In this document: positions 6,430 to 63,390 of the stretch, one piece after another
Numbering within the stretch: the first letter of the stretch is position 1
How the letters are laid out: each line of letters starts with the position of its first letter
Assembly: GCA_963789615.1 (NCBI GenBank)
Contig: CAWBLI010000005.1
Coordinates: 1,454,309 to 1,518,308 of the forward strand
Direction: 5' to 3'
Source of the DNA: an uncultured Actinomycetota bacterium
GTDB taxonomy: Bacteria; Actinomycetota; Actinomycetes; JAFAQI01
DNA: 64,000 nt
Program-made: the position numbers and the translations under genes
The notes under the pieces: generated by a model
What the model saw: only the letters and a program-made list of their open reading frames with translations
The model's database searches: none
Told to the model about the DNA's origin: nothing

Positions 6430-6600
6430 CATGTTTGGGAGCGTTAAGGGCGGGGAATGCAAAGCCGATCTAGTGTGTGCGTGCCACCCAACCGGGTGAC
6501 CGCCGCCTCCGTTCGCCGAACCTGTCCGTCGGAGTGCGCCAATCAACCCATCGGACAGGACCGGGGACCCACGTCACTTGAAGCGCTTCGGCGCTCCTTG
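6430..6600 (+). ncRNA. candidate ydaO-type (cyclic-di-AMP) riboswitch in the 5' leader of the NlpC/P60 hydrolase
   Basis: The roughly 480-nt leader contains GGCGGGGAAUGC ... CCGGGUGACC ... CCGAACCUGUC ... CCGGGGACCCACG blocks reminiscent of ydaO consensus. This riboswitch class is known upstream of actinobacterial cell-wall hydrolases. Confidence 0.35.
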
Positions 6601-6686
6601 GGGTGAAGTCGACGAGATCCTTTCGCCGACCGGGCTAGCACCTGCCCGAACCCGACAGCTAACTCGGCAGGCGTCGGAGAGCACGC

Positions 6687-8921: not shown

Positions 8922-9060
8922 GGGCCGGACTTGGCACCTGCCCTCACGGGTGGTTGCCGGGGCTTCACCGGGCCGGTCCCTCTGCCCCTCTGGATGACGT
9001 GCGACCCGGAAGCCGCACCGTCTCAGTGTGTCACATGCCTCGCACGCTCAGCGCAGCGCG

Positions 9061-14167: not shown

Positions 14168-14239
14168 GAGCCCCGTGTCCGGATCGAACGGACGACCTGC
14201 CGCTTACAAGGCGGCTGCTCTACCACTGAGCCAACGGGG
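14168..14239 (-). tRNA. tRNA-Thr (anticodon TGT)
   Basis: Reverse complement GCCCCGTTGGCTCAGTGGTAGAGCAGCCGCCTTGTAAGCGGCAGGTCGTCCGTTCGATCCGGACACGGGGCT folds as a cloverleaf. Anticodon loop CTTGTAA. 7-bp acceptor stem, GTTCGATCC T-arm. Confidence 0.85.
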
Positions 14240-14265
14240 CGAGGCTGGTTCAGGGTAGTGCGGAG

Positions 14266-36014: not shown

Positions 36015-36033
36015 GTGGTGGCACGCTATCCGT

Positions 36034-36555
36034 ATGCCGAAGCCCGATGCCGACGAGCAGGTCCGTCTCGAGGAACGACGGCAGGAGCTGCGGAGTGAGC
36101 ACCTGGTGCCGGTCGCCGACCGGGCGCCCAGCCCGGGACGCGGAATCCACCATGCGGCGCTGATCTGCAGCGATGTCGAGCAGACCATCGGCTTCTACCA
36201 GGGGCTGCTCGGCTTCCCGCTGGTCGAGCTGGTCGAGAACCGCGACTACCCGGGCTCGTCGCACTTCTTCTTCGACCTCGGCAACCGCACGTTGCTCGGC
36301 TTCTTCGACTTTCCCGGGCTCGGTCTCGAGGCGGCCCCGGAGGGGTTCGGCGGCGTCCAGCACATCGCGATCTCCGTCACGCCCGAGACGCACGCCGCGA
36401 TCCGGCAGCGGCTGGACTCGGCGGGTATCCCGTACGACGGGCCGCAGCGCGGCATCCCGGAGTCGATGTACCTGCGCGACCCCGACGGGATCGGCATCGA
36501 GCTGCTCTCGGACGACCTGATGTTCTTCGGCGGCGAGTGGCTCGACGGCCGCTAG
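36034..36555 (+). CDS. VOC (glyoxalase/bleomycin-resistance/dioxygenase) family protein
   Basis: IHHAALICSDVEQTIGFYQGLLGFPLV ... GVQHIAISV ... GIELL is the paired beta-alpha-beta-beta-beta VOC module. Confidence 0.7.
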   Translation: MPKPDADEQVRLEERRQELRSEHLVPVADRAPSPGRGIHHAALICSDVEQTIGFYQGLLGFPLVELVENRDYPGSSHFFFDLGNRTLLGFFDFPGLGLEAAPEGFGGVQHIAISVTPETHAAIRQRLDSAGIPYDGPQRGIPESMYLRDPDGIGIELLSDDLMFFGGEWLDGR

Positions 36556-39782: not shown

Positions 39783-40359
39783 TCAGCTGCTCTCGGTGGG
39801 CAACAGGTCAGCGACGTCGGCGGTGCCGTCCTTGTAGCGGCGTCCGATCTCGGCCGTGCACGCGTCCATCACGTGCTGGACCAGGCGGCGCTTGGCCGAC
39901 AGGTCGACCTCCTCGTGCTGGAGCAGGTCGAGCACTCGGTTGAGGTCGGCATCGTCGTGTTGCGAGGGATCCGAGAGGTCGACGTCGGCGAGCATCGACT
40001 CGAGGTAGCGACGGTGCTCCTCGGACTCGGTCGGCTCGACGGTGACGTGGCGGCCCGAGGCCGTGGGGGCCGACCGGCGGCCCATCGGCGAGGATCGTAG
40101 TGAGCGAGTCGACGAGGGAGTTCGAGCCATCGCCCACGCGGCGGGCGAGCTCGGCGCGCAGGATGTCCATCCGGCCTTGCAGCAGCCGCCGCAGGTAGGA
40201 CAGGTTGGTCTCCTCCTGCTCGGCTTCGGAGCGCATCCGGCGGACGTCCTCGAGCGGGCGCTCGGTGAGGTCGTCCAGGTATCCCTCGGCCAGGATGTGG
40301 TCGATTCGGCGGTTCCCCGGGTTCGTCATGCGAGCGGCCTCCGGCTCTGTCGTCGTCAC
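39783..40359 (-). pseudogene. RsiG-like c-di-GMP-binding anti-sigma factor homolog; frameshift at about 40080-40100
   Basis: Two exact copies of the RsiG motif E-x3-S-x2-R-x3-Q-x3-D: ETNLSYLRRLLQGRMD in the N-terminal helix and EVDLSAKRRLVQHVMD in the C-terminal helix. The halves are in different frames. Confidence 0.5.
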
Positions 40360-40491
40360 CGCGCCATGGTGTCACGACACGCCGCGAACATGTCCGTGCA
40401 GATTGGCCCGAATGGCTCAACGTCCGCAAGAAATGTGCCGAAGAGATGGAAGCAGCCAGCACCAGCCCGCGCCGTCAGGAGGTCGTCGTTC

Positions 40492-49037: not shown

Positions 49038-49655
49038 TCACGACGGCCTGTCGGCTCGACTCGCCGCTTCGTACTGGCTCACGCAGTCGTCGTACGACGG
49101 AAGGATTCCCTCGCTCACCGCCTGGGACAGGCTCACCGCCTCGGCGTCGCGCGGCGAGCGGATCAGGTCGCCGATGTCGTCCGGCCACGGCAGTCCGAGC
49201 GCTGCATCCAGCGCGTCGAGGGTGTGCTCAGCGGCCGGGTTGTACGTCGAGGAGACCAGGTAGTTCACGACCGTGTCGTCACGCAGCGCGCAGAATCCGT
49301 GCGCCAGGCCCTCGGCGACCACCAGCACTCGTCGGTCGACATCGTCGAGGACGGCGCTCGCGAACGCCCCGAAGGTCGGCGACCCGACGCGCACGTCGAG
49401 GACGACGTCGAGGACCGAGCCAGCCGGGCAGGCAACGACCTTCGCCTGACCGGGCGGTACGTCGGCGACATGCATGCCACGCAGCACGCCGCGATGCGAG
49501 AGCGAGAGATTCGCCTGCGCGGTAGGAAATCGTCGGCCGGTCGCCTCGGCCAGCTCGTCGTCGCGAAACCACTCGAGGAACGCGCCGCGGTCATCGGCGT
49601 ACTGCGTGGGGGTGCACAGCCAGGCGCCGGGAACGTCGAGCGGGCGAATGTCCAC
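49038..49655 (-). CDS. rmlC: dTDP-4-dehydrorhamnose 3,5-epimerase
   Basis: VDIRPLDVPGAWLCTPTQYADDRGAFLEWF...RGMHV is the RmlC cupin. GTG start. The long upstream in-frame extension is an artefact. Confidence 0.85.
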   Translation of the reverse strand: MDIRPLDVPGAWLCTPTQYADDRGAFLEWFRDDELAEATGRRFPTAQANLSLSHRGVLRGMHVADVPPGQAKVVACPAGSVLDVVLDVRVGSPTFGAFASAVLDDVDRRVLVVAEGLAHGFCALRDDTVVNYLVSSTYNPAAEHTLDALDAALGLPWPDDIGDLIRSPRDAEAVSLSQAVSEGILPSYDDCVSQYEAASRADRPS

Positions 49656-49674
49656 GCCCGGGACGCTATCGGGG

Positions 49675-50211
49675 TTAGCTGCCTGGAGGTGACGGCGATG
49701 GTGTCGGGGTGGCGTCGCCGGCAGCCGGGCTCGGCGGGAGAGCGGAGGCGTTGCCCGGGGTTGCCGTCGGAGTCGCGGTCGACGTCCCGTGCGAAGTGGC
49801 CGTCGACCTGGCAGTCGACGCGGCCGTTGGCGTTGCGGTTGGTTCGCCGCTGGGTACGGCGCTCGGTACGGCGGTGACGCGGCACGGCGTCGCGTACGCC
49901 GTCGCGGGGGCGTGAGAGCTCGGCGAGCTGGCAGACGGCATCGGCGTGGCACATGCGGCGGTCCGATGGTGCGAGCTGCTCGCCGGGGTGACGACCTGGA
50001 CGTGGCCACCGGATCCGCCGGACGACGTGACGGCATGCACGGTTATCGGCGTACCGGCCAGCACCGCCGCTACCCCGGTCGCGGCGTAGGCCTGGTGCCG
50101 TCGATGGATCCGATGGCCGGCCCGCCGTACGACGGTCAGGGTGCCGGGATCCGCGACCGCCCGGTCGGCCAGTCCGCGCATGGCGGCGCGGATCGCATCG
50201 TCGTTCATCAT
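49675..50211 (-). CDS. hypothetical protein, possible anti-sigma factor partner of the ECF sigma (S/T/P/A-rich C-terminus)
   Basis: Start overlaps the sigma-gene stop (ATGA). N-terminal 60 aa globular, one hydrophobic segment GVAAVLAGTPITVHAV, then low-complexity tail. Confidence 0.35.
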   Translation of the reverse strand: MMNDDAIRAAMRGLADRAVADPGTLTVVRRAGHRIHRRHQAYAATGVAAVLAGTPITVHAVTSSGGSGGHVQVVTPASSSHHRTAACATPMPSASSPSSHAPATAYATPCRVTAVPSAVPSGEPTATPTAASTARSTATSHGTSTATPTATPGNASALPPSPAAGDATPTPSPSPPGS

Positions 50212-50753
50212 GTGCCGATCCTCACGGTGGGTTCATCCTCCAGGACATCTGCGTCAGACAGCAGCACGCGCAGCTTGCTCAACCCGCGTGAGGTCTGACT
50301 CTTCACGGTGCCGACCGAGCACTGCAGCACCTCGGCGGCTTGCGCCTCGCTCATGTCATCCAGGTAGCGCAGGACCACTGCGGCGCGCTGGCGGACCGGC
50401 AGGCAGGCGAGCGCTCGCTGCAGGGCATCGAGCTGGTCGACGTGGGCGAAGGCGTCTCTGCCGACGACCTCGGGAAGCTCGGCGGTAGGCCGCTCGCCCC
50501 GCCACCGCCGGCGCCAGGACATCCGCTGCTCGTTGACGATGGCAGTCCGGACGTAAGCCTCGGCCCGCCCGTGGTCGATCTTCGACCAGCGCAGCATGGT
50601 GCGCGTCAACGCCGCCTGGACCAGATCCTGGGCGGCGTTGCGGTCGCCGCAGATCAGATAGGCAAAGCGGGTGAGCGGGAGCAGCCGCGCCTGCACGAAC
50701 TGCGCGAAGCCGTCCTCGTCGCGGATCACACCTGTCACGATGCGCAGCCCCAC
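50208..50753 (-). CDS. ECF (sigma-70 group 4, SigE-like) RNA polymerase sigma factor
   Basis: Region 2 FAYLICGDRNAAQDLVQAALTRT and region 4 LRYLDDMSEAQAAEVLQCSVGTVKSQTSRGLSKLR. Confidence 0.85.
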   Translation of the reverse strand: MGLRIVTGVIRDEDGFAQFVQARLLPLTRFAYLICGDRNAAQDLVQAALTRTMLRWSKIDHGRAEAYVRTAIVNEQRMSWRRRWRGERPTAELPEVVGRDAFAHVDQLDALQRALACLPVRQRAAVVLRYLDDMSEAQAAEVLQCSVGTVKSQTSRGLSKLRVLLSDADVLEDEPTVRIGT

Positions 50754-50790: not shown

Positions 50791-51651
50791 TTAGTCGAGG
50801 AGGGTCAGCAGGTAGCCGCCGTAGCCGCTGGTCGCCAGCGCGGCCGCGTGCTCGCGGAGCTGGTCGTCGGTGATCCAGCCCTGCCGCCAGGCGATCTCCT
50901 CGGGACAGCCGATCTTCAGCCCCTGCCGGTCCTCGACCACGCGCACGAACTCCGAGGCGTGGACCAGGCTGGCGAAGGTTCCGGTGTCGAGCCACGCCGT
51001 GCCGCGGGGCAGCACGCTCACCCGGAGCCGGCCGCGGTCGATGTAGGCCTGGTTCACCCCGGTGATCTCGAGCTCGCCCCGCGGGCTGGGGGTGAGGCTG
51101 CGGGCGATCTCGACGACCTCGTTGTCATAGAAGTACAAGCCCGGTACGGCGTACGAGCTCCGCGGATGCTCGGGCTTCTCCTCGATGGACACCGCCCGGC
51201 CTTCGCCGTCGAGCTCGACGACGCCGTACGCCGAGGGCTCCGCCACGTGGTAGGCGAAGATGTGACCGCCGGTGATGTCGGTCAGGCCGGCCAGCTGGGC
51301 ACCGAGCCCGGTGCCGTGGAAGATGTTGTCGCCGAGCACCAGCGCGACCGAGTCGCCACCGATGAAGTCCGCACCGATCGTGAACGCCTGGGCCAGGCCC
51401 TTCGGCTCCGGCTGGACCGCGTAGGTGACCTCGATGCCGAGCTCGTGGCCGTCGCCGAGCAGCCGTTGGAACTGCGCGGAGTCCTCCGGCGTCGTGATGA
51501 TGAGCACCTCACGGATGCCCGCCATCATCAACGTTGACAACGGATAGAACAGCATCGGCTTGTCGTAGACCGGCATCAGCTGCTTGGAGATCGCGCGCGT
51601 GATCGGCCACAGCCGCGACCCGGTTCCACCTGCCAGCACGATGCCTTTCAC
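50791..51651 (-). CDS. rmlA: glucose-1-phosphate thymidylyltransferase
   Basis: [39 protein letters not shown]-terminal [17 protein letters not shown]. Confidence 0.9.
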
Positions 51652-51686
51652 GCCCGTACGGTAGCGGGGCACGGCATGATGGTCGC

Positions 51687-52664
51687 GTGAAGCTGCTTGT
51701 CACAGGCGGTGCCGGTTTCATCGGCTCCCACCTGGTCCGGACCCTGTTGACCGACGGCTACCCGGCGTACCAGGGCGTGGAGGTGACCGTCTACGACAAG
51801 CTGACGTACGCCGGAAACGTCGCGAACCTCTCGCCGGTCATCTTCAGCGACCGCTACCACTTCGTGCACGGCGACATCCTCGACAGCAAGCTGCTGGACG
51901 AGGTGCTGCCGGGTCACGACGCCGTGCTCAACCTCGCCGCCGAGTCCCACGTCGACCGGTCGATCACGGGCGGGGCGGAGTTCGTCATGACGAACGCGGT
52001 CGGGGTCCAGACCCTGCTCGACGCCTGCCTGCGTGCCGGGATCCCTCGCGTCGTACAGGTGTCGACCGACGAGGTGTACGGGTCGATCCCCGAGGGGTCG
52101 TTCACCGAGACCACCCTGCTCGAGCCCAACTCGCCGTACGCCGCTGCGAAGGCCGCCGGTGACCTGATCGCGCGCTCCTACGTCGTGACGCACGGGCTCG
52201 ACGTGGTCGTGACGCGATGCACCAACAACTACGGGCCCTACCAGTACCCCGAGAAGCTGATCCCGCTGTTCGTGACGAACCTGTTCGATGCGTTGAAGGT
52301 GCCCTTGTACGGCGACGGGCTCAACGTGCGCGACTGGCTCCACGTCGACGACCACTGCCGCGCCCTGATGCTCGTCCTCGACAAGGGCCGGGCCGGCGAG
52401 ATCTACAACATCGGCGGCGGCACCGAGCTGGCCAACCGCGACCTCACCGAGCGGCTGCTCGCCGCGTGCGGCGCCGACTGGTCGTCGGTGACACCGGTCG
52501 AGGACCGCAAGGGCCACGACCGGCGGTACTCCCTCGACGACTCCAAGCTGCGTGCGGAGCTCGGCTACGCGCCGCAGATGGACTTCGACGCCGGCCTGGC
52601 CGCGACGGTGCAGTGGTACCGCGACAACGAGTCCTGGTGGCGACCCCTGAAGTCCCCCGCGTAG
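51687..52664 (+). CDS. rmlB: dTDP-glucose 4,6-dehydratase
   Basis: [17 protein letters not shown] ... VSTDEVYG ... YAAAKAAGD (TDE and YxxxK motifs). Confidence 0.95.
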
Positions 52665-52690: not shown

Positions 52691-53560
52691 ATGACGCGCT
52701 GGCTGGTGACCGGCGCCGGGGGGCAGCTCGGGACCGACGTCGTCGACGTGCTCCGCGTCTACCGCGCCGACGTCGTCGCCGCTGACCACGCGATGCTCGA
52801 CATCACCGACCCCGACGCCGTCGACGGCGTGCTGCTCGGCGCCGCTCCAGACGTCGTCGTGAACTGCGCCGCCTACACCGACGTCGACGCCGCCGAGACG
52901 AACGAAGGCGCCGCCAGACGCCTCAACACGGTCGGCCCCGGCCTGCTCGCACAGTGGTGCGCACGCCACCGCGCCCGGCTGATCCACGTCTCGACCGACT
53001 ACGTGTTCTCGGGCGACGCCGAGGCACCGTACGACGAAAACGCACCCACCCAGCCGCGATCGGCGTACGGAAGAACCAAGGCCGGTGGCGAGCGCGCGGT
53101 AGCGGCCGCCGGCGGCGACTGCCACGTCGTCCGCACCGCCTGGGTGTACGGCGCCTCCGGCCGCAACTTCGTCAAGACCATCGCCCGGCTGGCCGGCGAG
53201 CGCGAGACGCTCGACGTGGTCGATGACCAGCTCGGCTCGCCGACCTGGTCGCTGCACCTCGCCCGCGCGCTGGTCGCACTGAGCGTCGAGGACGTCCCGC
53301 CGGGCATCTGGCACTGCACCGGCGCCGGCGAGGCGACCTGGTGCGGGCTGGCCCGCGCCGTCCTCGCCGAGATGGGCATGGACCCCGCCCGCGTCAGGGC
53401 GACGACGTCCGAGGCGTTCCGCCGCCCGGCGCCGCGACCGTCGTACTCCGTGCTGTCCGACCGGCGGTGGATCGAGGCCGGGCTACCGACGATGGCGCAC
53501 TGGCGGGACGCCCTGCACGAGGCGTTCCTTGCCGTCGGCGAGGAACTGGTCGGTCGATGA
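52691..53560 (+). CDS. rmlD: dTDP-4-dehydrorhamnose reductase
   Basis: MTRWLVTGAGGQLG ... VSTDYVFSG ... YGRTKAGGE. Confidence 0.9.
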   Translation: MTRWLVTGAGGQLGTDVVDVLRVYRADVVAADHAMLDITDPDAVDGVLLGAAPDVVVNCAAYTDVDAAETNEGAARRLNTVGPGLLAQWCARHRARLIHVSTDYVFSGDAEAPYDENAPTQPRSAYGRTKAGGERAVAAAGGDCHVVRTAWVYGASGRNFVKTIARLAGERETLDVVDDQLGSPTWSLHLARALVALSVEDVPPGIWHCTGAGEATWCGLARAVLAEMGMDPARVRATTSEAFRRPAPRPSYSVLSDRRWIEAGLPTMAHWRDALHEAFLAVGEELVGR

Positions 53561-54327
53561 GCCGATACGCGACCATCGTCCTGCGCGCCTACGGCCGGAC
53601 CGTCGGCATCACCGGGCCCGACACCGCCCTCGGCATCGTCCGCGACCGGCTTCCCCCGTCGTACCGGCCGTCAGCTGACGAGCCGGAGCGGCAGTGGCGG
53701 ATCGGAGTCCGCGGCGGGTTGTTCCGCGCCGACAACGACAGCGACCAGCTCGCGCTCGTCGACAACGTCGTGACCGCGAGCGAGATCGTGCTGAGCGACC
53801 TCGAGCTGTGGGTCGCCGAGCACGCCCGGCGCCACATCTTCGTCCACGCCGGCTGCGTCGTCATCGACGACCGCGCGATTCTCATCCCCGGCCGCAGCAT
53901 GAGCGGCAAGACCAGCCTCACCGCGGCGCTGATCCGCGCCGGGGCGACGTACTGGTCGGACGAGTACGCCGTTCTCGACTCCAGCGGGCAGGTGCGGCCC
54001 TACTCCCGGCGGCTGGCGATCCGACCGTACGACGGCGGACCCCCGCATCGCATGACCGCGACGGATGTCGGCGGCGCCGTGGGTCGCGGGGCGCGACCGG
54101 TCGGGCTGGTCGTCGTGCTGCGCTACGACGCCGGCGCCGGGTGGAACGTCCGGCCGCTGACCCGCGGCCAGGCGGTGCTTCAGCTGCTCGACAACACGAT
54201 CCCGGCCCGGAGCCGGCCCCGCGCGGTGCTGTCGGCGCTGGACCGGGCCACCCAGCACGCGCAGTGCCTGGCCGGCACCCGCGGCGACGCCGACGCCACC
54301 GCCGAACTGATCCTCGCCAAACTCTGA
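53558..54327 (+). CDS. HprK-related serine kinase (HPr kinase C-terminal-domain homolog; HprK-related kinase A/B type)
   Basis: P-loop LIPGRSMSGKTSLTAALIRAG followed by the Asp-rich catalytic region WSDEYAVLD. ATG overlaps the rmlD stop (ATGA). Confidence 0.6.
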
Positions 54328-54424
54328 AACCCGGGGGCGAACCTGCCGATAGCGCCTAGGTGTCCCGTCTTCCTGCCGTGCGTGCCGTTCCCGGCCGACG
54401 GCTTCCCGCCGCATCGGCGACGAC

Positions 54425-55381
54425 GTGGTGCTCTACGACCGTGACGACCACGACGTCCACCTGCTGACCGGCCCGGTCGCAGCGGTCTGGCGCCGCCTGG
54501 AAGGCGACTCGGACGCCCCCGACATCTCCCCGACCGAGCACGACGCCGCGGTGCAGCACCTGCTCGACCTCGGCGTCGTCGTCCCGGTCGGAGGCGACGA
54601 CGGCATCAGCCGCCGCCGGCTGCTGCAGCGCGGCGCCCTCGTCGCCGCCGGCGGTGTCGTGGCGCTGCCGCTGATCGAGTCGATCAGCGCCCCGGCCGCG
54701 TTCGCCGGCTGCTCGTCCGCCGGCTCGATGACCTATGACCTGGTGTCGTCGTTCGGATCCGGCGTGACGTCGAAGAACGCCGCCGTCCCGAACGCGCCGA
54801 CCTTCGTCTGCGGCGGCACCAACGTCACCGGCACCCGGACCGGCAACAACGCGATCGGTCCGTTCAGCTTCACCTTCACCCCGCGGGCAAGCGACGGCTG
54901 CACCGTGGGCGGCAAGGGGATCGGCGACCCGCCAACCTGGGGCCTGGTCTACAACGGCACCGGCGGCGCTGGGAAGCAGTTCATCGACCCGGTCACCGGC
55001 TACAACGACTACGTCGGGTACGCCGCCGGCACCACCGGGCCGCTGCAGCTGACACCGGACACGGCGCACGACGTCGGCATCCGCTTCGACCGGCAGTGCT
55101 CGACGGTCGCGAGCTCGTCGGCGTTGCTTACCTTCAGCCTGACCAACACCTCCGCCAGCAACGTCACCATCGGCTTCGACAAGCTGACCTCCGTGACGGC
55201 GACCAACAACGGCGTCGCCACGACCGGCCTCGGACCGTTCACGCTGGCAGCCGGGAAGAAGCTGGTCGGAACCGCCACCGCGACGCTGACCGCCGCCACG
55301 CCGTACTTCCAGGTCTACGCGGACTGGACCGCCGGCACCAACCAGCCGATCACCGTCACGACGTTCACCGTCACCGTCTGA
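54425..55381 (+). CDS. PqqD/RRE-like domain fused to Tat/lipobox-like segment and secreted Thr/Gly-rich beta-rich domain (paralog 1)
   Basis: VVLYDRDDHDVHLLTGPVAAVWRRLEGDSD...AAVQHLLDLGVV is a PqqD-like wHTH. SRRRLLQRGALVAAGGVVALPLIESISAPAAFAGCSS follows, then about 210 aa T/G/S-rich ending TVTTFTVTV. GTG start; no in-frame start nearer the RRR. Confidence 0.55.
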   Translation: MVLYDRDDHDVHLLTGPVAAVWRRLEGDSDAPDISPTEHDAAVQHLLDLGVVVPVGGDDGISRRRLLQRGALVAAGGVVALPLIESISAPAAFAGCSSAGSMTYDLVSSFGSGVTSKNAAVPNAPTFVCGGTNVTGTRTGNNAIGPFSFTFTPRASDGCTVGGKGIGDPPTWGLVYNGTGGAGKQFIDPVTGYNDYVGYAAGTTGPLQLTPDTAHDVGIRFDRQCSTVASSSALLTFSLTNTSASNVTIGFDKLTSVTATNNGVATTGLGPFTLAAGKKLVGTATATLTAATPYFQVYADWTAGTNQPITVTTFTVTV

Positions 55382-55486: not shown

Positions 55487-56020
55487 GTGCTCCACAGCGG
55501 CTGGGTGGTCAGCATCGACCGCCACATCCAGCTGCAGGTGTTCCTGCACCAGCATCGCGGGCTCCGCGACGCCGCGAACGTCCTGACCTGGTTGGGCGAC
55601 CCGGCCACGGTCGTCGTCGTGGTCGTGTTGTCGACGGTGGTTCTCGCCGTACGCCGGGACTGGGTCCGCGCCGTCGCGCTGCCGGTCGCCGTCGTCGCCG
55701 CGCTTTTGGTGGGCCAGGTGGTGCGGCACGCGATCGGCCGCAGCTCGCCGACCTTCGGCTCGCACCTGCACGTGCCGGGCGGCGACTCGTACCCGTCGGG
55801 GCACGCACTCGGCGCGGCGCTGTGCCTGGCGGCCGTGGCGATCGCGGTACGACGGCGATGGGTGAGCTGGGCGGCGGCCGTCATCGCCGTACTGGTCGCC
55901 GTCGCCCGGGTGTATCTGTTCGCGCACTTCACCAGCGACGTCATCGCCAGCCTGCTCGCGGCGGCCGTCGTCGTCACCGCCGTCGAGGCGGTCGCCGAGA
56001 TGACAGCCGAGCGAACCTAG
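55487..56020 (+). CDS. PAP2-family (phosphatidic acid/undecaprenyl-pyrophosphate phosphatase-like) membrane protein; N-terminus possibly extended to 55386 through a frameshift
   Basis: Conserved PSGH and SR...H phosphatase motifs (PSGHALGAA ... ARVYLFAHFTSDV). Upstream in-frame TM helix lacks a start codon, while ATG 55386 is in the -1 frame. Confidence 0.55.
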   Translation: MLHSGWVVSIDRHIQLQVFLHQHRGLRDAANVLTWLGDPATVVVVVVLSTVVLAVRRDWVRAVALPVAVVAALLVGQVVRHAIGRSSPTFGSHLHVPGGDSYPSGHALGAALCLAAVAIAVRRRWVSWAAAVIAVLVAVARVYLFAHFTSDVIASLLAAAVVVTAVEAVAEMTAERT

Positions 56021-57489
56021 TAGGCCCCGTCGCGCAGGATCACGGCGAAGAACGTCTTCCACAGGATCATCAGGTCCATCGCGAACGACCAGTTCTCGAC
56101 GTAGTACAGGTCGAGGCGGACGCTGTCCTCCCAGCTCAGGTCGGAGCGGCCGGACACCTGCCACAGGCCGGTGATGCCGGGGCGGACCAGCAGCCGGCGC
56201 GCGACGTCGGAGCCGTACTCCGCGACCTCGCTGGGCAGCGGCGGGCGCGGGCCGACGATCGCCATGTCGCCCTTGACGACGTTCCACAGCTGCGGCAGCT
56301 CGTCGAGCGACCACTTGCGCAGCAGGGCACCGAACCGCGTCACCCGCGGGTCGGCACGCATCTTGAACAACAGCCCGTCGGCGGCTTCGTTCTGCTCGCG
56401 CAGCGTCTCCAGCAACGCCTCGGCGTCGGAGCGCATGGTCCGCAGCTTGTAGACCGTGAACTCGCGGCCGTGCTTGCCAACCCGGGTCTGCCTGAACAGC
56501 GGTGCGCCCGGACTGTCGATCCGGATCATCAGCGCGAGCGCGCCGAGCACCGGCAGCATCAGCACGAACGCGATCGTCGCGGTCACCCACTCGAACGTCG
56601 CCTTCACCCGCGGCCGCAGCCCGACCAGGTCCGGCTCGTCGACGTGCAGCAGCGGCAGGCCCGCGACCGGGCGGATGTTGATGCGCGGCCCGGCGACGTC
56701 GGTGAGTGCCGGCGCGACGACCAGGTCGACCCCGGTGCCCTCGAGCTCCCACGACAGGTGCCGCAGCACGAGCGGCGACATGCCGGGCCCGGAGGCGACA
56801 GCAACGGTGTCGGCCTGCGACGCCTTCACGGCCTCGAGCACCTGGGTGAGCGATCCCAGGACAGGCAGGCCGTTCTCGAGCGCGCGACCCGGTCCGGGAG
56901 CGGGCACGCAGACACCGACGACGCGGAAGCCGGCATGAGGCACCCGGCCGAGCTCGTGGGCGAGCTGCGAGACGTTCTGCGCACCACCGACCGCGAGCAC
57001 CCGGTGCTGGTAGCGCCCGAAGGCACGCTGGTGATGCAGCCAGCGACGGGCGGCGTACCGGCCGAGCAGCAGCAGCAGGGTGCCGAGCGGCAGCGCGATC
57101 GCGACGTAGCCGCGGGCCAGCTGGATCTGGAAGATGTAGCAGATGACGGCGGCGCTGGCGCCCAGTCGGAACGACGCTGCACCGACCCGCTTGAACTCCT
57201 CAGCGCCGGTCCCGAGGTAGCGCATCTCATAGGCGCGGCCGACGACGAGCATCAGCAACCAGACCGGGACGACGAGCAGGCTGACCGCCAGGTAGGACAG
57301 GCCGTGGATGGCGGAGCCGTCGTTGGCGCCGAACCGGGCGCGGAACGCGATGAGCGTGCTGACGAGGACGATGAAGGTGTCGATCGAGACCAGGATCCGG
57401 CGGTACTGCAGCTGCCAGTCCGCGGTCCCGACCAGCGGAAGCAGGGTTTCCGCGGGCGGGGTGCTGGTGACGTCGTGACCGCGCTGCAT
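56017..57489 (-). CDS. WbaP-like undecaprenyl-phosphate hexose-1-phosphate transferase (polyprenyl glycosylphosphotransferase, priming enzyme)
   Basis: N-terminal TM bundle. C-terminal bacterial sugar transferase domain ...LFRQTRVGKHGREFTVYKLRTM...LDELPQLWNVVKGDMAIVGPRP. Confidence 0.85.
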   Translation of the reverse strand: MQRGHDVTSTPPAETLLPLVGTADWQLQYRRILVSIDTFIVLVSTLIAFRARFGANDGSAIHGLSYLAVSLLVVPVWLLMLVVGRAYEMRYLGTGAEEFKRVGAASFRLGASAAVICYIFQIQLARGYVAIALPLGTLLLLLGRYAARRWLHHQRAFGRYQHRVLAVGGAQNVSQLAHELGRVPHAGFRVVGVCVPAPGPGRALENGLPVLGSLTQVLEAVKASQADTVAVASGPGMSPLVLRHLSWELEGTGVDLVVAPALTDVAGPRINIRPVAGLPLLHVDEPDLVGLRPRVKATFEWVTATIAFVLMLPVLGALALMIRIDSPGAPLFRQTRVGKHGREFTVYKLRTMRSDAEALLETLREQNEAADGLLFKMRADPRVTRFGALLRKWSLDELPQLWNVVKGDMAIVGPRPPLPSEVAEYGSDVARRLLVRPGITGLWQVSGRSDLSWEDSVRLDLYYVENWSFAMDLMILWKTFFAVILRDGAY

Positions 57490-57654
57490 GGCGCTGGTAC
57501 GGGCGTCGTCGGCCAGGGTCACGGTCTCCCTTCCGATCCGTCCGCGTCGAGAGTTCAGGTTAGGACCGGCGGTCCGGCCTGTCAGACACTTTGGCAACGT
57601 TGTAGGCGTAAGTTCAGTAACCCATTCGGCCTAACAGGCAGCCATCTTGAGGAG

Positions 57655-58842
57655 ACTTCGCTGAGCCGGCTCAAGATCCTTCTGGTGGATCATGTCGCAC
57701 GGCTCTCCGGCGGCGAGATCGCGCTCGCCCGCGTGCTTCCCACGCTCGCGCACGATGTCGACATCCACGTCGTTCTGGGCGAGGAGGGCCCGCTCGTCGC
57801 TCGACTCCGCGAGGCCGGCATCCAGGTCGAGGTCATGCCGCTCGCGGCGGCCGCCCGCGACACCCGCAAGGACACCGTGACGGCGACCGGCGTACCGCTC
57901 GGCGCCGCCTGGGCCACCTCGTCGTACGTGTGGGCGCTGCGACGACGGATCCGCGCGCTCCGACCGGACATCGTGCATACCAACTCCCTCAAGTCCGCCG
58001 TGTACGGCGGGCTGGCCGGCCGGGCTGCCGGCGTACCGGTGCTCTGGCACATCCGCGACCGCATCGCGACCGACTACCTGCCGGCCAGCGCGGTTCGGAT
58101 GATCCGCGGCGCGGCCGGGGTGCTCCCGACCGCGATGGTGACTCCCTCGCGCACCACCATGGACACGATGCCGGGACGGCGGCCGGTGATACGTGCTGTC
58201 GTCCCCGATTCTGTTGAACTGCCTAGTGTCGACGTCTCGGACGCTTCATCGGAGGCGTCGGGGGTTCCCGACGACGTCGCCGACGGGCCTCACCCGTTCC
58301 GGATCGGGATGGTCGGGCGGCTGGCGGAGTGGAAGGGCCAGCACATCGCGATCGAGGCGTTCGCGCGGGCGTTTCCGGATGGCGACGCGCAGCTGTGGTT
58401 GGTCGGCGAGGCGATGTTCGGGGAGTCGGTGTACGTCGACCGGCTGCGCCGGCAGATCGACGCGCTCGGGCTCGGCGACCGGGTCGAGCTCCGCGGCTTC
58501 CGTGACGACGTCTGGTCGGAGCTCGCCCGGCTGGACGTCCTCGTGCACGCCTCGACCAGCCCGGAGCCGTTCGGCCAGGTCGTTCTCGAGGGGATGGTGT
58601 ACGGGCTCCCGGTCATCGCGGCAGCGCCCGGTGGGCCGGCCGAGATCATGGTCGACGAGGTCGACGGGCTGCTGGTGCCGGCGGGATCGGTGGCCGCGTT
58701 GGCGGCGGCTCTCGAACGGCTCGCGTCGGACTCCGGGCTGCGCGACCGGCTGGGGCAAAGCGCCCGAATCACCGCAGCGCGGTACACACCGGCCAGAACC
58801 GCCTCCGGTCTGCTGAGCGTGTATCGGCGGATGGTCGATTAA
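57655..58842 (+). CDS. GT4 family glycosyltransferase
   Basis: ...HIRDRIATDY... and C-terminal EPFGQVVLEGMVYGLPVIAAAPGGPAEIMVDEVDGLLV (E-x7-E motif region). Start codon uncertain (CTG/TTG about 57652-57661). Confidence 0.75.
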   Translation, partial: TSLSRLKILLVDHVARLSGGEIALARVLPTLAHDVDIHVVLGEEGPLVARLREAGIQVEVMPLAAAARDTRKDTVTATGVPLGAAWATSSYVWALRRRIRALRPDIVHTNSLKSAVYGGLAGRAAGVPVLWHIRDRIATDYLPASAVRMIRGAAGVLPTAMVTPSRTTMDTMPGRRPVIRAVVPDSVELPSVDVSDASSEASGVPDDVADGPHPFRIGMVGRLAEWKGQHIAIEAFARAFPDGDAQLWLVGEAMFGESVYVDRLRRQIDALGLGDRVELRGFRDDVWSELARLDVLVHASTSPEPFGQVVLEGMVYGLPVIAAAPGGPAEIMVDEVDGLLVPAGSVAALAAALERLASDSGLRDRLGQSARITAARYTPARTASGLLSVYRRMVD

Positions 58843-58932
58843 GACACCCCTCGCCCGCACCGATGCCTCTCTGGAGTCAGAAAGGACCGCTGCCCCTCTG
58901 GGCTTAGAGGAAGCTGCGCGAAAGGGGACCCG

Positions 58933-60288
58933 ATGTCGTCGACGGCACCGCGGCGCGTCCCCGGCGTGGTCGAGCGACCGATCGGCGACGAGATCGTCGC
59001 CTACGAGCCGGCGCAGGGCGCAGCGCATGTCCTGCGTGGCATCACGGCCACGGTCTGGCGCTGCTGCGACGGTGACCGCGACCTCCCGGCGATCGCCGTC
59101 GCCAACGGCCTGAGCCTCGACGACGTCGTCGCCGCGGTCGACGAGCTGGAGTCGGCGGGTCTGCTGTTCGGCGTACCCGGGGGGATCGACCGGCGACGGC
59201 TGCTGCAACGCGGCATGCTGCTCGGCGGTGCGGTCGCGGGCGTCATGAGCATCGAGTCGATCCTGGCGCCGCTGCCGTTCGCGGCTGCCAGCACGCCGGT
59301 GACGATCATCAACCGGGCGATCGCGGGGACCGTCACGGGCACCATCCCGAAGGGCTTCCTGACGCTGCACTTCACGATCATCGGTGGGGGCGGCGGCGGC
59401 AGCTACTCGCAGGGCACGTTCGTCAGCGGCGCCGGCGGCGACGCGTCGTCGATCACCGGGTCGATCACCCTCGCGTCCAACCCGAGCGGCACCGTGGTCA
59501 CCGCGGTCGTGGGGGCCGGCGGCGCGGGAGGCGTCTCGACGCCGGGAGTGGTGGCGGGCGGGTCTGGCTTCGGCAACGGCGGCAGCGCCAACACGGCTGG
59601 CCCCGGCGGAGGCGGAACCGCGATAACCATCGGCGGCCAGGCGATCGTCGTCTCCGGTGGCGGTGGCGGTGGCGGCCGGTCTTTCGTCAACGACGACAGC
59701 ACCGGTGGCATCGGTGGTGACGCCGGCGACGCCGCGCTGACCAATGTCGCGGACCCGGGGTCGGGTGGCGGTGCGTCGAACGACGGCAACTTCGCCGGTG
59801 GCGGCGGTGGCGGTGGCCAGACCAGCGGCGGTGGCGTGGCTTCGGGTGGTGCGGGTGGCGCCGGCGGCCCGGCTCCGACCGGGCGCGGGATCACGGGTGG
59901 CAAGAAGGGCGTGGCTGGCTCGGTCGGCACCGCGGGCACGGCGGCGGCGGGTGGCAATGGCGGGGCCGGCGGCACCGGCGGCTTTGGCGGGACCGCGGTC
60001 GAGAACGCCTACGCAAGCGGTGGCGGCGGTGGCGGCGGCTGGGGTGGCGGCGGTGGCGGCGGCGAGGGCGGCAACAACGGCCAGTCCGCAGGCTCCGGCG
60101 GTGGCGGCGGTGGCGGCGGCTCCAACTACACGAATGGCCGGACCGGATTCACCGTGGCGATCGCGTCGATCGGGGATGTCGTCGGGTCCGGCAACGGCGC
60201 CGGTGGTGCAGGCGGCGTGTCGACCGCGTCCGGCGGAGCCGGCAACCCGGGCCAGCCCGGCTACGCGATCGTCAGCTACAGCCCCTGA
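58933..60288 (+). CDS. PqqD/RRE-like domain fused to Tat-like segment and secreted Gly-rich repeat domain (paralog 2)
   Basis: VERPIGDEIVAYEPAQGAAHVLRGITATVWRCCDGDRDLPAIAVANGLSLDDVVAAVDELESAGLLF is a full PqqD-like fold. DRRRLLQRGMLLGGAVAGVMSIESILAPLPFAAAS follows, then about 330 aa of GGxGG-type Gly-rich repeats ending YAIVSYSP. Confidence 0.55.
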   Translation: MSSTAPRRVPGVVERPIGDEIVAYEPAQGAAHVLRGITATVWRCCDGDRDLPAIAVANGLSLDDVVAAVDELESAGLLFGVPGGIDRRRLLQRGMLLGGAVAGVMSIESILAPLPFAAASTPVTIINRAIAGTVTGTIPKGFLTLHFTIIGGGGGGSYSQGTFVSGAGGDASSITGSITLASNPSGTVVTAVVGAGGAGGVSTPGVVAGGSGFGNGGSANTAGPGGGGTAITIGGQAIVVSGGGGGGGRSFVNDDSTGGIGGDAGDAALTNVADPGSGGGASNDGNFAGGGGGGGQTSGGGVASGGAGGAGGPAPTGRGITGGKKGVAGSVGTAGTAAAGGNGGAGGTGGFGGTAVENAYASGGGGGGGWGGGGGGGEGGNNGQSAGSGGGGGGGGSNYTNGRTGFTVAIASIGDVVGSGNGAGGAGGVSTASGGAGNPGQPGYAIVSYSP

Positions 60289-60305
60289 TCTTGCCCGCCG
60301 CCCGC

Positions 60306-60396
60306 CCCCACCAATGGCCCATTGGTGTTGCTATAGCCCCACCAATGGGCCATGCGTGTTGCTATAGCCCCACCAGTGGGCCATGCGTGTGGGGGG
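60306..60396. repeat. family P palindromic element, three tandem units of about 31 bp
   Basis: ccccaccaatggcccattggtgttgctatag / ccccaccaatgggccatgcgtgttgctatag / ccccaccagtgggccatgcgtgtggggggttag. Each unit contains the palindrome CACCAATGG-CCATTGGTG. Fills the convergent gap 60289-60396. Confidence 0.7.
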
Positions 60397-61686
60397 TTAG
60401 CGGCGGGTGAGGTCGGCGAGCGCCCCGAAGGCGCGGCCGACCCGCGGCTGGTCTCGCAACACGGGTACGGCGAATGGCCGCTGCTGGCCGTCTCCGGTCA
60501 CGGCCGGTGCACCGAACTCCGAACGTGCCGCGGCCCGCGACCCCGACCCGGCACGAGCGGCATGCGGCACCGAGCCGGCGGCGACGGCGCGGGCGTAGAG
60601 ATCCGCCTGCCGGGCAGCCACGACATCCCACTGCTTGTCCCGGGCGGCGGCGATGCCGCGCTGCCGCAACGCCTCCCACTCGACCGGGTCCTGGCCGAGC
60701 CGAGCGACGGCGCGCGCCAGCCCCACCCGGTCGCCCTCCGCCGAGAGCCAGGCGCCACCGGCCGCCACCTCGGGGATGGTCCCGCTGGCATATCCGGCGA
60801 CGGCCGCGCCGCACGCCTGCGCCTCGACGACGCCGCGCCCGAACTGCTCCACCCAGCGGCTGGTCGCCTGGCTCGGTACGACGACGACGTGGCTGCCGCG
60901 GTAGATCTCGGCCAGCGAGCTCTCGTCGGCCCACGGCAGCAGGTCGACGTGGCCGGTCACCCCCCACTTCGACGCGAGCTCGGGGATCCGCGCCGCCTCC
61001 GGGCCGGACCCGACCACCACCAGCCGGGCGTCGCGGTGCCGGCGTACCTCGGCCAGGACCTCGACCGCGTCGGCGACGCCCTTCTCCGGCACCAGCCGCC
61101 CGGCGAGCGCCAGCCGGAACAACTCGTCGGCGTGCTGCTGGTGACCCGGCGAGAACACGCCCGGGTCGTGACCGAGCGGCAACACCTCGATCAGCCCGGC
61201 GTAGCCACGACCGCGGACCACCGACGCGGCCTGCCGCGAGCAGGGCGCGATCGCGCTCAACCGTCCGAACGCCTGCCGCTCCCACGAGGTGTACGGCGGC
61301 GGGTAGCGCTTGTCGAGGTTCTGCGCCGTGTAACCGACCGCCGGCGTCCCGACTGGCAGCGCCGCGAGGACCTGATGCGTGACCGCGCTGAACGGTTCCT
61401 CGTGCAGGTCCACCAGATCCGGAGCCACCCGGCGGATCACAGCGACCAGCGCGGCTGGATCGGCGTACCGATGGCGGTTGACGTCACCAGCGCGGCTCAC
61501 CGGCAGTGAGACGACCTCGAACGGCTCATCGGAGAGCGTCGACTCGGAGCCGGACTCCGGCCACGACGACGGGACCACGAGCACGACGTCGACGCCGGCA
61601 GCGACCAGCGCGCGTTCCCGCGCGCGGTGCGACCGGTCGCGTCCGGCGTGGTAGATCCGCAGGACGCGCAGCCGCTGCTCACCCAC
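60397..61686 (-). CDS. GT4 family glycosyltransferase
   Basis: ...VVVGSGPEAARI... GT4 fold with C-terminal ...VVPSQATSRWVEQFGRGVVEAQACGAAVAGYASGTIPEV. Confidence 0.75.
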   Translation of the reverse strand: MGEQRLRVLRIYHAGRDRSHRARERALVAAGVDVVLVVPSSWPESGSESTLSDEPFEVVSLPVSRAGDVNRHRYADPAALVAVIRRVAPDLVDLHEEPFSAVTHQVLAALPVGTPAVGYTAQNLDKRYPPPYTSWERQAFGRLSAIAPCSRQAASVVRGRGYAGLIEVLPLGHDPGVFSPGHQQHADELFRLALAGRLVPEKGVADAVEVLAEVRRHRDARLVVVGSGPEAARIPELASKWGVTGHVDLLPWADESSLAEIYRGSHVVVVPSQATSRWVEQFGRGVVEAQACGAAVAGYASGTIPEVAAGGAWLSAEGDRVGLARAVARLGQDPVEWEALRQRGIAAARDKQWDVVAARQADLYARAVAAGSVPHAARAGSGSRAAARSEFGAPAVTGDGQQRPFAVPVLRDQPRVGRAFGALADLTRR

Positions 61687-62421: not shown

Positions 62422-63390
62422 TTGGCAGGCGCCATGCTCACCGACGTCCTCGCCGACTCGACCGCCGCGCCCGACGACCTGGCGCGCGACGGTGTCGCGC
62501 TGCTTGCCGCGCATTTGCTGGTCGGGCGGCTGGACGAGCGGCAGCGTCGGACCCTGATCGAAGCGGCGATGCCGTGGACCCTCGCGACGATGACCTCGGA
62601 GATCGCCGCCCGCGACGCCAGCGCCACCCTCAGCGAAGCCGGCATCGACCACGCGGTCATCAAGGGGCCGATCCTCGCGGCGGCCTGGCGCGAGACGTTC
62701 GGCAGCGACGTCCGGACCTACACCGACGTCGACATCCTGGTACGCCGGTCCGACGTACCCGCGGTCACCCAGCGACTGGTTTCTGAGCTCGGCGCGACCG
62801 AGTCGGTGAGGTCGGTCGGCGAGATCGGCTTCGGGCTGCCCAGCGGCGCCGCCATCGACCTGCACTGGCTCCTCATCAACGACGAGGGCGTGGTCGCACG
62901 GCACCGGCTCGACACCGACGACCTGCTGCGCCGGGTCCGCACCGACGGTCCGCTACGCCAGCTCGACCCGGTCGACTCGGTGATCCACGTCAGCCTGCAC
63001 GCCGTCATCAGCGACGGCAGCCGGCTGGCGGCGGCCATCGACCTCGCCGCGCTGCTGCGCACCGGCGACATCGATCTGGACCTGCTGGTACGACGGGCCC
63101 ACCACCACCGCGCGGTACTGCCGCTGGCCGTCATGACCGACCGCGCCGCCGCCGTGACCGGCTTCGCCGAGGCGGTCGAGCTGGCCCGCCGGCTGCCCAG
63201 CTCGCCGTGGCGCACCGCCTGCCGGCGCTTTGCCGGGTCGGTGCGGCCGGCGAGCGGCCGACGCTGGACCGGCGGGGAGATGATCCGCGCGACCCGGTAC
63301 AGCACGCTGAGCTCGGTCGCCGCGGTGGTTGCCGCGCTGCCCACCAACGTGCGGACCCAGCGCGAGCTGCGTCGCGGGGCACTTCGGTGA
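62422..63390 (+). CDS. uncharacterised nucleotidyltransferase family protein (PF14907-like)
   Basis: ...HAVIKGPILAAAWRETFGSDVRTYTDVDILVRRSD ... DLHWLL matches the lasso-cluster-associated 'nucleotidyltransferase' family. hG[GS]-x9-13-Dh[DE]h pattern is present as KGP...DVDIL. Confidence 0.55.
   Translation: MAGAMLTDVLADSTAAPDDLARDGVALLAAHLLVGRLDERQRRTLIEAAMPWTLATMTSEIAARDASATLSEAGIDHAVIKGPILAAAWRETFGSDVRTYTDVDILVRRSDVPAVTQRLVSELGATESVRSVGEIGFGLPSGAAIDLHWLLINDEGVVARHRLDTDDLLRRVRTDGPLRQLDPVDSVIHVSLHAVISDGSRLAAAIDLAALLRTGDIDLDLLVRRAHHHRAVLPLAVMTDRAAAVTGFAEAVELARRLPSSPWRTACRRFAGSVRPASGRRWTGGEMIRATRYSTLSSVAAVVAALPTNVRTQRELRRGALR

Follow-up and report, generated by a model that had tools for sequence, protein, structure and literature searches.

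A large family of proteins joining an RRE domain to a twin-arginine-type segment and variable cargo, and its link with an HprK-like kinase and a PF14907 nucleotidyltransferase

RiPP (peptide made by the ribosome and modified after translation) recognition elements, or RREs, are peptide-binding domains known as enzyme-side adaptors in peptide natural-product pathways. In the HPr-rel-A group, the model descriptions speak of a triad with a nucleotidyltransferase near exopolysaccharide loci. Here we analyse a 64,000-nucleotide stretch of DNA from an uncultured Actinomycetota bacterium (contig CAWBLI010000005.1 of assembly GCA_963789615.1; hereafter the window), in which the gene at 58933-60288 encodes a 451-aa protein with such a domain at its N-terminus. 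The closest described systems are the LPP clusters, in which a discrete RRE (LppB) goes with the HprK-like kinase LppK, the NTP transferase LppN, the SipW-like signal peptidase I LppS and an exporter of the MsbA type; they lie inside loci for capsular polysaccharide and, by their authors' statement, occur in Bacillota alone (Popov et al., Nat Commun 2026, PMC13381572). Their precursors, of 35-200 aa, combine a conserved N-terminal YxxPxVLxHQxIxFET/xxS motif (the slash marking the cleavage site) with highly variable C-termini, and polyphosphorylation takes place at Ser+3 (counted from the cleavage site; within AQS in LppA) (PMC13381572). In a second system the lasso peptide pseudomycoidin is phosphorylated on its C-terminal Ser by PsmK, of the HprK family, and PsmN, an uncharacterised NTP transferase, is needed for hexose addition to that Ser (PMC6993621).

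The window shows some of these parts in another arrangement. We are nearly certain of the architecture of the 451-aa protein and its relatives, namely an RRE, a twin-arginine translocation (Tat)-type segment and variable cargo in one chain, and of their forming a large cross-phylum family; an HprK-like kinase gene and a PF14907 nucleotidyltransferase gene lie close by (Table 1). By analogy with the systems above, we give a probability of about 50% to the reading that this is an LPP-like system whose RRE has been fused in cis to Tat-exported substrates. The family is very large and uncharacterised, and we found no description of an RRE-signal-cargo fusion family in the literature searched.

A fusion family with an RRE, a Tat-type segment and variable cargo

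The open reading frame (ORF) at 58933-60288 is a genuine gene in its coding frame. In a window of ~71% GC, its GC content at third codon positions (GC3), 0.87, is the maximum among the frames, and a Shine-Dalgarno-like site precedes its start. The gene has an ortholog of 453 aa, 87% identical in protein sequence, in a soil metagenome-assembled genome (MAG; DATAVK01, 'Mycobacteriales bacterium SMAG_U5597'), and codon differences between the glycine-rich parts of the two are synonymous in 84 cases and non-synonymous in 23. The GC3 peak, the ribosome-binding site and this synonymous excess together establish gene and frame. Long ORFs do overlap it elsewhere, for example at 59403-59975 (-) and 59744-60367 (+), as would suit a chance open frame in high-GC DNA with the true gene in another frame or on the other strand; but GC3 and the synonymous pattern match the 58933-60288 frame, the glycine-rich ORF runs on unbroken from the RRE module, and homologs of the same architecture occur in other phyla, so that we count this explanation, to which we assign next to no probability, as refuted.

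The N-terminal domain, which had been called PqqD-like in an earlier reading made without database searches (the sequence-only reading), is indeed an RRE. With a 120-sequence alignment, AlphaFold2 (AF2) models residues 10-80 as a beta-beta-beta-alpha-alpha-alpha winged helix at a predicted local confidence (pLDDT) of 91-97, and the best Foldseek matches of this model in the PDB are the lasso RREs TbiB1 (with leader) and TfuB1, the RREs of TruD/LynD, PbtF, TigE and CteB, and PqqD. The family profile matches TbiB1 as well (E 1.7e-4); PDB entries 9x8z and 9x90 (the LppB and PbaB1 complexes) were absent among its PDB matches. The Pfam PqqD model (PF05402) is sub-threshold for the 451-aa protein, at 14.1 bits versus a gathering score of 23.4 (E 0.06), and matches 96 of 109 relatives at E<=1e-3.

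The sequence-only reading had also held that the RRE and the linker behind it are shared with a second gene of the window, paralog 1, and BLASTP bears this out: the 58933-60288 product and that of ORF 54425-55381 align over one significant segment (44/104 identities, 42%; E 2e-14), made up of the PqqD-like part and the RRRLLQRG...IESI.AP..FA linker, and show no similarity in their C-termini. The window holds these two family members, together with one kinase and one nucleotidyltransferase. The family extends far beyond them. An exhaustive search of 1.84 billion cluster representatives with a module profile (alignment A2, built from the window paralogs and the three first matches) gave 8,778 representatives at E<=1e-3, 3,748 of them at E<=1e-10. 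The best 150 matches, 137-745 aa in length, all span the module from the start of the PqqD domain to the end of the linker and carry as tails cystine-rich peptides or IPT/TIG, lectin, cadherin-like or Gly-rich domains. A word-index search was far poorer in yield, with two matches for the full-length query, in which glycine words dominate, and one for the N-terminal query; among GTDB representatives, a narrower module alignment found matches confined to two loci of one Mycobacteriales MAG. Family genes lie on Actinobacteria-, Acidobacteria-, Armatimonadota- and Chloroflexi-like contigs, and the few annotated members (Blastocatellia, Armatimonadota) bear the NCBI label 'PqqD family protein', the others being hypothetical.

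Alignment of 268 members with hmmalign gives the linker consensus [ST]RRxhh[RK][RK]...PxVx[ST]IxAP...Ax[ST]. Its twin-arginine region reads [ST] (94%), R (99%), R (99%), x, [LMV], [LVM], [RK] (73%), [RK] (77%) and is followed by an Ala/Gly-rich stretch of 8-12 residues; next come P (98%), [LV], [VI] (99%), x, [ST] (100%), [IV] (91%), x, A (82%), P (97%), x, [PA] (95%), and the terminus is x, x, A (93%), [AQ], [ST] (99%; S 83%, T 16%). Ordinary Tat signals are conserved in the RR motif only, whereas here the motif is kept as far as the terminal Ser/Thr across the 268 members, so that the likeness between the linkers goes beyond what Tat signals generally share. The sequence-only reading had missed that the motif exceeds a plain signal peptide and closes on a nearly invariant Ser/Thr. 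From these sequences, the demand for a hydroxyl residue at the terminal position would seem unusual for the -1 site of a signal peptidase.

Export of the family proteins is likely, by a route that is predicted. As the sequence-only reading had recognised, an export-type segment follows the PqqD-like domain: in the 451-aa protein D-R-R-R-L-L-Q-R is followed by 13 hydrophobic residues and A-A-S, that is, by a Tat motif with a small-x-small site, and the linker part of the family profile matches the Tat signals of nitrous-oxide reductase NosZ and arsenite oxidase AioB among PDB sequences. The segment resembles Tat signals in its S/T-R-R-x-h-h-K/R motif, its mildly hydrophobic, Ala/Gly-rich h-region and its small-x-small c-region; it differs in that the sequence of the h- and c-regions is kept across phyla and in its internal site, with RR87-88 behind a folded domain and not N-terminal as Tat signals require. 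Of the curated Tat models, TIGR01409 and PF10518 have no match in the 451-aa protein; TIGR01409 falls just short on paralog 1 (14.0 bits versus a cut-off of 16.7), and PF10518 matches 2 of the 109 relatives. An internal hydrophobic segment with positive charges on its N-side, in an architecture like that of single-pass regulators and in a gene set among membrane-associated sugar transferases, would also suit an uncleaved type-II (N-in) signal-anchor protein, whose cytoplasmic RRE recruits the kinase and nucleotidyltransferase, or other proteins, to the membrane as a scaffold of the polysaccharide machinery and whose extracellular glycine-rich domain stays tethered. We think this improbable, because the Ala/Gly-rich segment with its conserved Pro (and a Glu in this subfamily) would make a poor stable transmembrane helix, because the conserved small-x-small site behind it is typical of cleavage, and because the tail of many members is no more than a cystine-rich stretch of 25-35 aa, with the look of a peptide that is set free.

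What follows the module varies widely. In 135 of 266 sampled members the tail is at most 90 aa long with at least 4 Cys, typically 25-35 residues patterned C-x6-C-x5-CC-x3-C-xn-C directly after A-x-[ST]. Among 109 longer members Pfam identifies ALK_LTK_GRD (12), IPT/TIG (7), DUF1554 (4), Lcl_C (2) and, once each, Big_9, cadherin-like, PKD, legume-lectin, SH3_3, Peptidase_S74 and omega-atracotoxin domains. All these cargo domains are of extracytoplasmic kinds, which supports export and, with the size and cross-phylum reach of the family, upholds the proposal of the sequence-only reading that one conserved module is attached to different surface cargo by function and not by accident. The commonest form in the Acidobacteria-type loci that we handled as L006-L088 is a protein of ~160 aa with a six-cysteine knottin-like tail of 25-35 aa.

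The kinase and nucleotidyltransferase beside the fusion genes

The sequence-only reading missed that the family is linked with genes for an HprK-like kinase and a PF14907 nucleotidyltransferase, and this link places it beside the LPP and paeninodin systems. Within 10 kb the window holds the kinase (P-loop GRSMSGKTS, with a weak Hpr_kinase_C match), both paralogs and the nucleotidyltransferase. Along its whole length the kinase shares 36% identity (E 2e-42) with the product of the gene that follows the family gene P0001 on a metagenome contig, and the next gene there is of the PF14907 family. Either or both enzymes adjoin family genes in 7 of 8 other contigs looked up, of Acidobacteria and Actinobacteria type and often in polysaccharide loci (Table 1). 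For a broader count, a metagenome scan with the Acidobacteria-type sub-alignment returned at least 567 confirmed relatives, and among the best 80 loci, which were analysed, the nucleotidyltransferase is next downstream in 20 of the 43 that have at least 1.2 kb of downstream sequence, the kinase is adjacent in 14 of the 47 with at least 1 kb upstream, and at least one partner enzyme is present in 16 of the 31 with both flanks.

Other genes recur near family genes too, encoding Wzy_C, glycosyltransferase and TPR proteins. Among the Acidobacteria-type relatives (L006-L088), genes of the ~160-aa form directly adjoin, in 50 of 84 loci and on the same strand, genes for very large secreted multidomain proteins (1,000-2,200 aa) with Peptidase_C25, PATR, LTD and DUF4214 domains, which are commoner neighbours than the kinase or nucleotidyltransferase; TPR genes recur there in 14 loci and Lon genes in 11. 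A reading of the fusion protein as an anti-sigma factor, prompted by the extracytoplasmic function (ECF) sigma gene of the window, was set aside, since sigma factors are not recurrent neighbours elsewhere. On the contig of P0002 (L005, 1683-4061), two full PqqD and glycine-rich paralogs and the start of a third stand in tandem, a local expansion. With several paralogs per enzyme pair, the pattern resembles that of substrates.

The likenesses to LPP clusters are several: an RRE occurs with an HprK-like Ser kinase and a PF14907-type NTP transferase in a polysaccharide-locus setting; the presumed substrates have a conserved head and variable C-termini, Gly-rich or Cys-containing; and P-x-V stands 15 residues before the invariant Ser/Thr, which is the P(-13)...S(+3) spacing of LPP precursors, with an A-[AQ]-S end, often A-Q-S, to compare with the AQS that opens the LppA core. 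However, the two also show clear differences: (i) the RRE forms one chain with the putative substrate, whereas that of LPP clusters is discrete. (ii) No SipW-like leader peptidase or MsbA-like exporter turned up in the window or in related loci. A hidden Markov model (HMM) of 10 published LppS-type sequences had no match in the window, in 88 related loci or in 3 further loci; Pfam found no S24/S26 peptidase among the genes at 33-64 kb; and no MsbA-like exporter was found within 33-64 kb, where the sole ABC ATPase (35235-36188, 17 kb off) is not an MsbA-type fusion. (iii) A twin-arginine segment is inserted between RRE and motif. (iv) The Tyr/Trp of the YxxP motif is missing from the family. 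(v) Family cargo reaches folded domains of more than 600 aa. (vi) LPP clusters are reported from Bacillota only, unlike the family with its spread over the four contig types named above. For these reasons we do not assign the locus to the LPP clusters themselves; we see in it a variant system of that kind.

Two further comparisons can be made. As in paeninodin and pseudomycoidin tailoring (PadeK/PsmK, PsmN; PMC6993621), the same kinase and nucleotidyltransferase families occur with a PqqD-type RRE, but here there is no lasso cyclase (C) or B2 protease, and in the lasso case the modified Ser is C-terminal and the products are peptides of ~20 aa, not exported proteins. HPr-rel-A supplies the nearest curated models for kinase and RRE (TIGR04352, HprK-related kinase A; TIGR04353, PqqD family peptide chaperone). 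Yet the window kinase scores 51.3 versus 200 bits on the first, relatives of the fusion protein score 18-31 versus 35 bits on the second, which has no match in the 451-aa protein itself, and the HPr-rel-A PqqD protein stands alone at ~74 aa, with neither signal nor cargo.

The mechanism we propose by this analogy would run as follows. The three-part protein would consist of a cytoplasmic RRE, an internal Tat-type segment ending in Ser120 and an extracellular glycine-rich domain of 330 aa. Fused in cis, the RRE would replace the discrete adaptor and present the adjacent conserved segment to the kinase and the nucleotidyltransferase; the kinase would phosphorylate a Ser in the cytoplasm, the junction Ser/Thr (Ser120 here) being the best candidate, and the nucleotidyltransferase would then elaborate the phosphate, as in PsmN-dependent hexose addition. 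The Tat system would export the folded, modified protein and a general signal peptidase would cut near the A-x-S (small-x-small) site, so that these two would stand in for the SipW-like peptidase and ABC exporter of the Bacillota LPP clusters. We give the same even confidence to the view that the two enzymes act on the fusion proteins as to the LPP-like reading as a whole; Ser120 as the site of modification is a tentative suggestion.

Several results weigh against this reading. In the AF2 model of residues 1-140 the conserved segment is not placed on the RRE sheet and has a pLDDT of ~50, and LPP RREs are no nearer to the family RRE than are those of the paeninodin type. An 85-aa folded domain ahead of a Tat signal is atypical. 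The 451-aa protein departs from its own family in a Met at the 98%-conserved linker Pro, it offers nothing aromatic where the RRE-binding motif has Y/W, and its subfamily carries a Glu within the h-region (IESI). A position-specific scoring matrix (PSSM) of the family linker is not significant on LPP precursors (p 0.04-0.6); its best window does fall in the expected register in 4 of 10 precursors, for which chance would be ~3e-4 by a post hoc estimate. LppK rejects Thr in place of Ser (PMC13381572), whereas Thr is the terminal residue in 16% of the family. Neither enzyme is nearby in 15 of the 31 metagenome loci with both flanks; the family genes there resemble additional paralogs sited at a distance from the two enzymes, which is partly true of the 58933-60288 gene itself. 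Finally, the kinase and nucleotidyltransferase might act on polysaccharide rather than on protein.

The last points lend themselves to another account, close to the sequence-only reading, in which the 451-aa protein is a plain Tat-exported surface protein, the fused PqqD domain serves only as built-in chaperone or proofreader of the signal peptide, keeping hold of the Tat signal while the cargo folds, and the two enzymes belong to polysaccharide synthesis and leave the protein unmodified. The idea of a dedicated signal-binding protein is familiar from the redox enzyme maturation proteins (REMPs) TorD and DmsD, from which the present 'chaperone' would differ in having an RRE fold and in being fused in cis. 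The Tat consensus, the extracytoplasmic cargo, the peptide-binding nature of RREs, the wealth of rhamnose and glycosyltransferase genes in the locus and the half or so of both-flank metagenome loci with neither enzyme nearby all accord with it. We nevertheless judge it unlikely, if a little less so than the signal-anchor alternative: the kinase and nucleotidyltransferase track family genes across otherwise unconserved loci, the sole kinase and nucleotidyltransferase pairs of this type with an experimental characterisation act on peptides bound by an RRE, a c-region motif with an invariant Ser/Thr would be superfluous for a chaperone, and in the AF2 model the signal is not docked onto the RRE.

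We thus return to the LPP-like system with substrate-fused RREs as the preferred reading. What is new in it is an RRE on the substrate side, ahead of a Tat-type signal, in thousands of predicted secreted proteins and alongside the kinase/transferase pair of lasso and LPP systems. If the reading is right, LPP-type chemistry reaches past Bacillota and past small peptides, RiPP-style recognition is tied to the general export machinery, and the 'PqqD family protein' annotation bin, the PF14907 enzymes and their recurrent siting in envelope polysaccharide loci gain a testable function. A bolder extension, which we consider a long shot, is RiPP chemistry on the scale of proteins, in which the cis-fused RRE would guide the enzyme pair in placing a phospho-glycosyl or phospho-nucleotidyl group on the junction Ser/Thr, and this group would, after export, tether the Tat cargo through a phosphodiester to the cell-wall or capsular polysaccharide that the surrounding locus makes. 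This would amount to sortase-independent surface anchoring in Actinobacteria, Acidobacteria and other phyla, for cargo from knottin-like peptides to adhesin-like proteins of 600 aa.

The glycine-rich tail

The last 330 aa of the protein, 38% Gly, form the Gly-rich C-terminal domain that the sequence-only reading had delimited and had likened to PE-PGRS proteins. Its nature is not seen in direct searches: PF12810 has no match in the 451-aa protein even at E<=10, and an NCBIfam scan of the domain is likewise empty. It emerges from the relatives. The first homologs, P0001 and P0002, join PqqD and PF12810 domains by the same linker; PF12810 matches 9 of 12 aligned relatives (best E 3.9e-20); and a profile of the aligned Gly-rich domains matches LTK (E 0.018) and ALK (E ~0.15) over ~200 positions, the sole natural PDB matches. 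Scored with an HMM of nine relatives, the window domain exceeds 1000 of 1000 composition-preserving shuffles when the HMMER bias correction is applied, and 990 of 1000 when it is not. The AF2 model, which has moderate quality (pLDDT 61; predicted template-modelling score, pTM, 0.66), shows the ALK/LTK arrangement of a beta-sandwich core with long Gly-only segments; its top 17 Foldseek matches are all ALK/LTK glycine-rich domains (GRDs) or Bxb1/Pam3 phage fibre proteins. On the strength of the PF12810 relatives, the shuffles and these matches, the tail is a divergent ALK/LTK-type GRD and not a PE-PGRS-like one. It differs from the ALK/LTK (PF12810) and phage fibre domains in being sub-threshold, in extra Gly-rich insertions that make it ~80 aa longer, and in being joined to an RRE and signal module and not to a receptor kinase or a phage tail.

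The DNA of this region tells against a repeat-driven domain as well. Tandem Repeats Finder reports short imperfect arrays only, of 2-6 copies and at most ~56 bp. The six Gly runs (6, 7, 7, 7, 7, 8) have the same lengths in the MAG ortholog even though 47 of 137 Gly codons are synonymously changed, and the sole indel between the two, of 2 aa, lies outside the runs; runs that keep their length through synonymous drift point to structural constraint, not slippage. The suggestion that a ggcggtggc-type repeat is prone to contraction and expansion therefore fails. A hypervariable Gly-repeat surface antigen of the PE-PGRS kind, with expanding and contracting DNA, would agree with the composition (38% Gly and short GGC/GGT arrays) and with a nearest genome that is a Mycobacteriales MAG; but no PE Pfam match is found, an RRE occupies the N-terminus, the fold is that of ALK/LTK GRDs, relatives match PF12810, and the ortholog combines identical run lengths with the synonymous excess given above. 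We count this explanation, which we hold to be very improbable, as refuted. Of the earlier description of the two C-terminal domains, their being unrelated (Thr-rich versus Gly-rich) stands, and the PE-PGRS-like label does not.

Bacterial ALK/LTK-type GRDs are thereby identified as one cargo of the family, with a fold common to mycobacteriophage and cyanophage fibres: the domain matches PDB 9d93 (Bxb1 gp33, the 'wing brush' of the mycobacteriophage tail) and 7ypx (the cyanophage Pam3 fibre) as well as ALK, so that phages of related hosts appear to use the same fold, possibly for binding envelope glycans. A further relative, P0003, on a 1,758-bp JGI contig, is 81% identical to the 451-aa protein up to SIESILA (compared with window 59260-59400) and continues in an alternative frame of the Gly-rich region (AVAATRRERSSAEP...), which implies that the beginning of the domain has been lost, through a deletion of ~115 nt or through faulty assembly.

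Paralog 1 and other features of the window

Table 1. Features of the fusion gene and its surroundings in the window, and enzyme genes around other family genes (locus handles in place of positions)
Feature	Position or locus	Strand	Basis or remark
Coding sequence, RRE / Tat-like signal / Gly-rich fusion ("paralog 2"), 451 aa	58933..60288	+	ORF, GC3, ortholog with synonymous excess
Shine-Dalgarno-like AAAGGGG, 5 nt before ATG	58921..58927	+	read from sequence
PqqD/RRE winged-helix domain, residues ~8-80	58954..59172	+	AF2 and Foldseek
Twin-arginine-type signal / leader-like segment, residues 85-121: IDRRRLLQRGMLLGGAVAGVMSIESILAPLPFAAAST	59185..59295	+	family consensus
RR pair, residues 87-88	59191-59196	+	linker motif
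Conserved Ser120	59290-59292	+	terminal S/T of linker motif
ALK/LTK-type glycine-rich domain, divergent, residues 122-451	59296..60285	+	relatives, HMM, Foldseek
31-bp palindromic tandem repeat, 2.7 copies	60306..60390	.	between convergent stops of fusion gene and GT4 gene
Paralog 1, same RRE and signal module, unrelated Thr-rich tail, lipobox-like AFAGC	54360..55381	+	BLASTP, MAG ortholog
HprK-like P-loop kinase, directly upstream of paralog 1	53554..54327	+	TIGR04352 partial, E 8e-14
PF14907 (NTP_transf_5) nucleotidyltransferase, PsmN/LppN type	62422..63390	+	Pfam E 3.3e-17
rmlC	49038-50036
ECF sigma	50208-50753
rmlA	50791-51672
rmlB	51687-52664
rmlD	ends 53560
PAP2 phosphatase	55487-56020
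Priming sugar transferase	56017-57597	-
Glycosyltransferase family 4 (GT4), upstream of fusion gene	57769-58842
GT4, downstream of fusion gene	60397-61686	-
Membrane protein			between GT4 (60397-61686) and PF14907 gene
Further GT4			after PF14907 gene
P0158	L006		kinase, fusion, nucleotidyltransferase
P0187	L007		fusion, nucleotidyltransferase
P0229	L008		fusion, nucleotidyltransferase
P0074	L089		kinase, GT4, ..., fusion with GRD, nucleotidyltransferase, more glycosyltransferases
P0096	L090		fusion, nucleotidyltransferase
P0034	L091		kinase divergent upstream
P0002	L005		4-kb contig, three tandem paralogs

Paralog 1 has a disturbed 5' end, which the sequence-only reading missed. The GTG that it has at 54360 opens a different frame from that of the gene's main part, and the long ORF from 54425 lacks the first RRE strand; relative to the MAG ortholog (L002, 4230-5261, start MSRLMSARAVRAVPGRRLSRRIGDDVVLYD) there is a 1-nt deletion near 54412, GGCT-TCCC versus GGCTGTCCC, as well as a 9-nt in-frame deletion. 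The frameshift is either a sequencing error or the mark of a copy that is truncated or has become a pseudogene. The tail of paralog 1 gave no match in Pfam or NCBIfam. In paralog 1 and its orthologs the signal segment ends in A-F-A-G-C (PAAFAGCSS, residues ~92-98, 54700-54720), and in P0096 in L-A-A-C; by their sequence, members of this lipobox-like sub-branch may be Tat-type lipoproteins. A lipoprotein reading of the 451-aa protein was discarded, as it fits at most paralog 1 and a few relatives.

Behind the fusion gene, the tandem repeat has the unit CCCCACCAATGGGCCATGCGTGTTGCTATAG, with the palindrome CACCAATGG/CCATTGGTG in each copy, and is probably a terminator or a repetitive extragenic palindromic (REP)-like element. 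The translation signature of the repeat (PMGHAC...) recurs between genes of L001 and L002, both loci of the MAG, which suggests that the repeat may be a REP-like element dispersed in this lineage.

Rfam has no match in 52-64 kb; its gathering-score matches lie far from the fusion gene, namely a c-di-AMP (ydaO) riboswitch at 6527-6688 (+), a SAM-I riboswitch at 8893-9000 (-) and a tRNA at 14169-14240 (-). The region 40042-43127 encodes a DUF4388 protein (40042-41490) and, behind it, has an ORF of 495 aa (41640-43127) for which Pfam gives no match, and AT skew is unusually high (0.30) at 42-44 kb.

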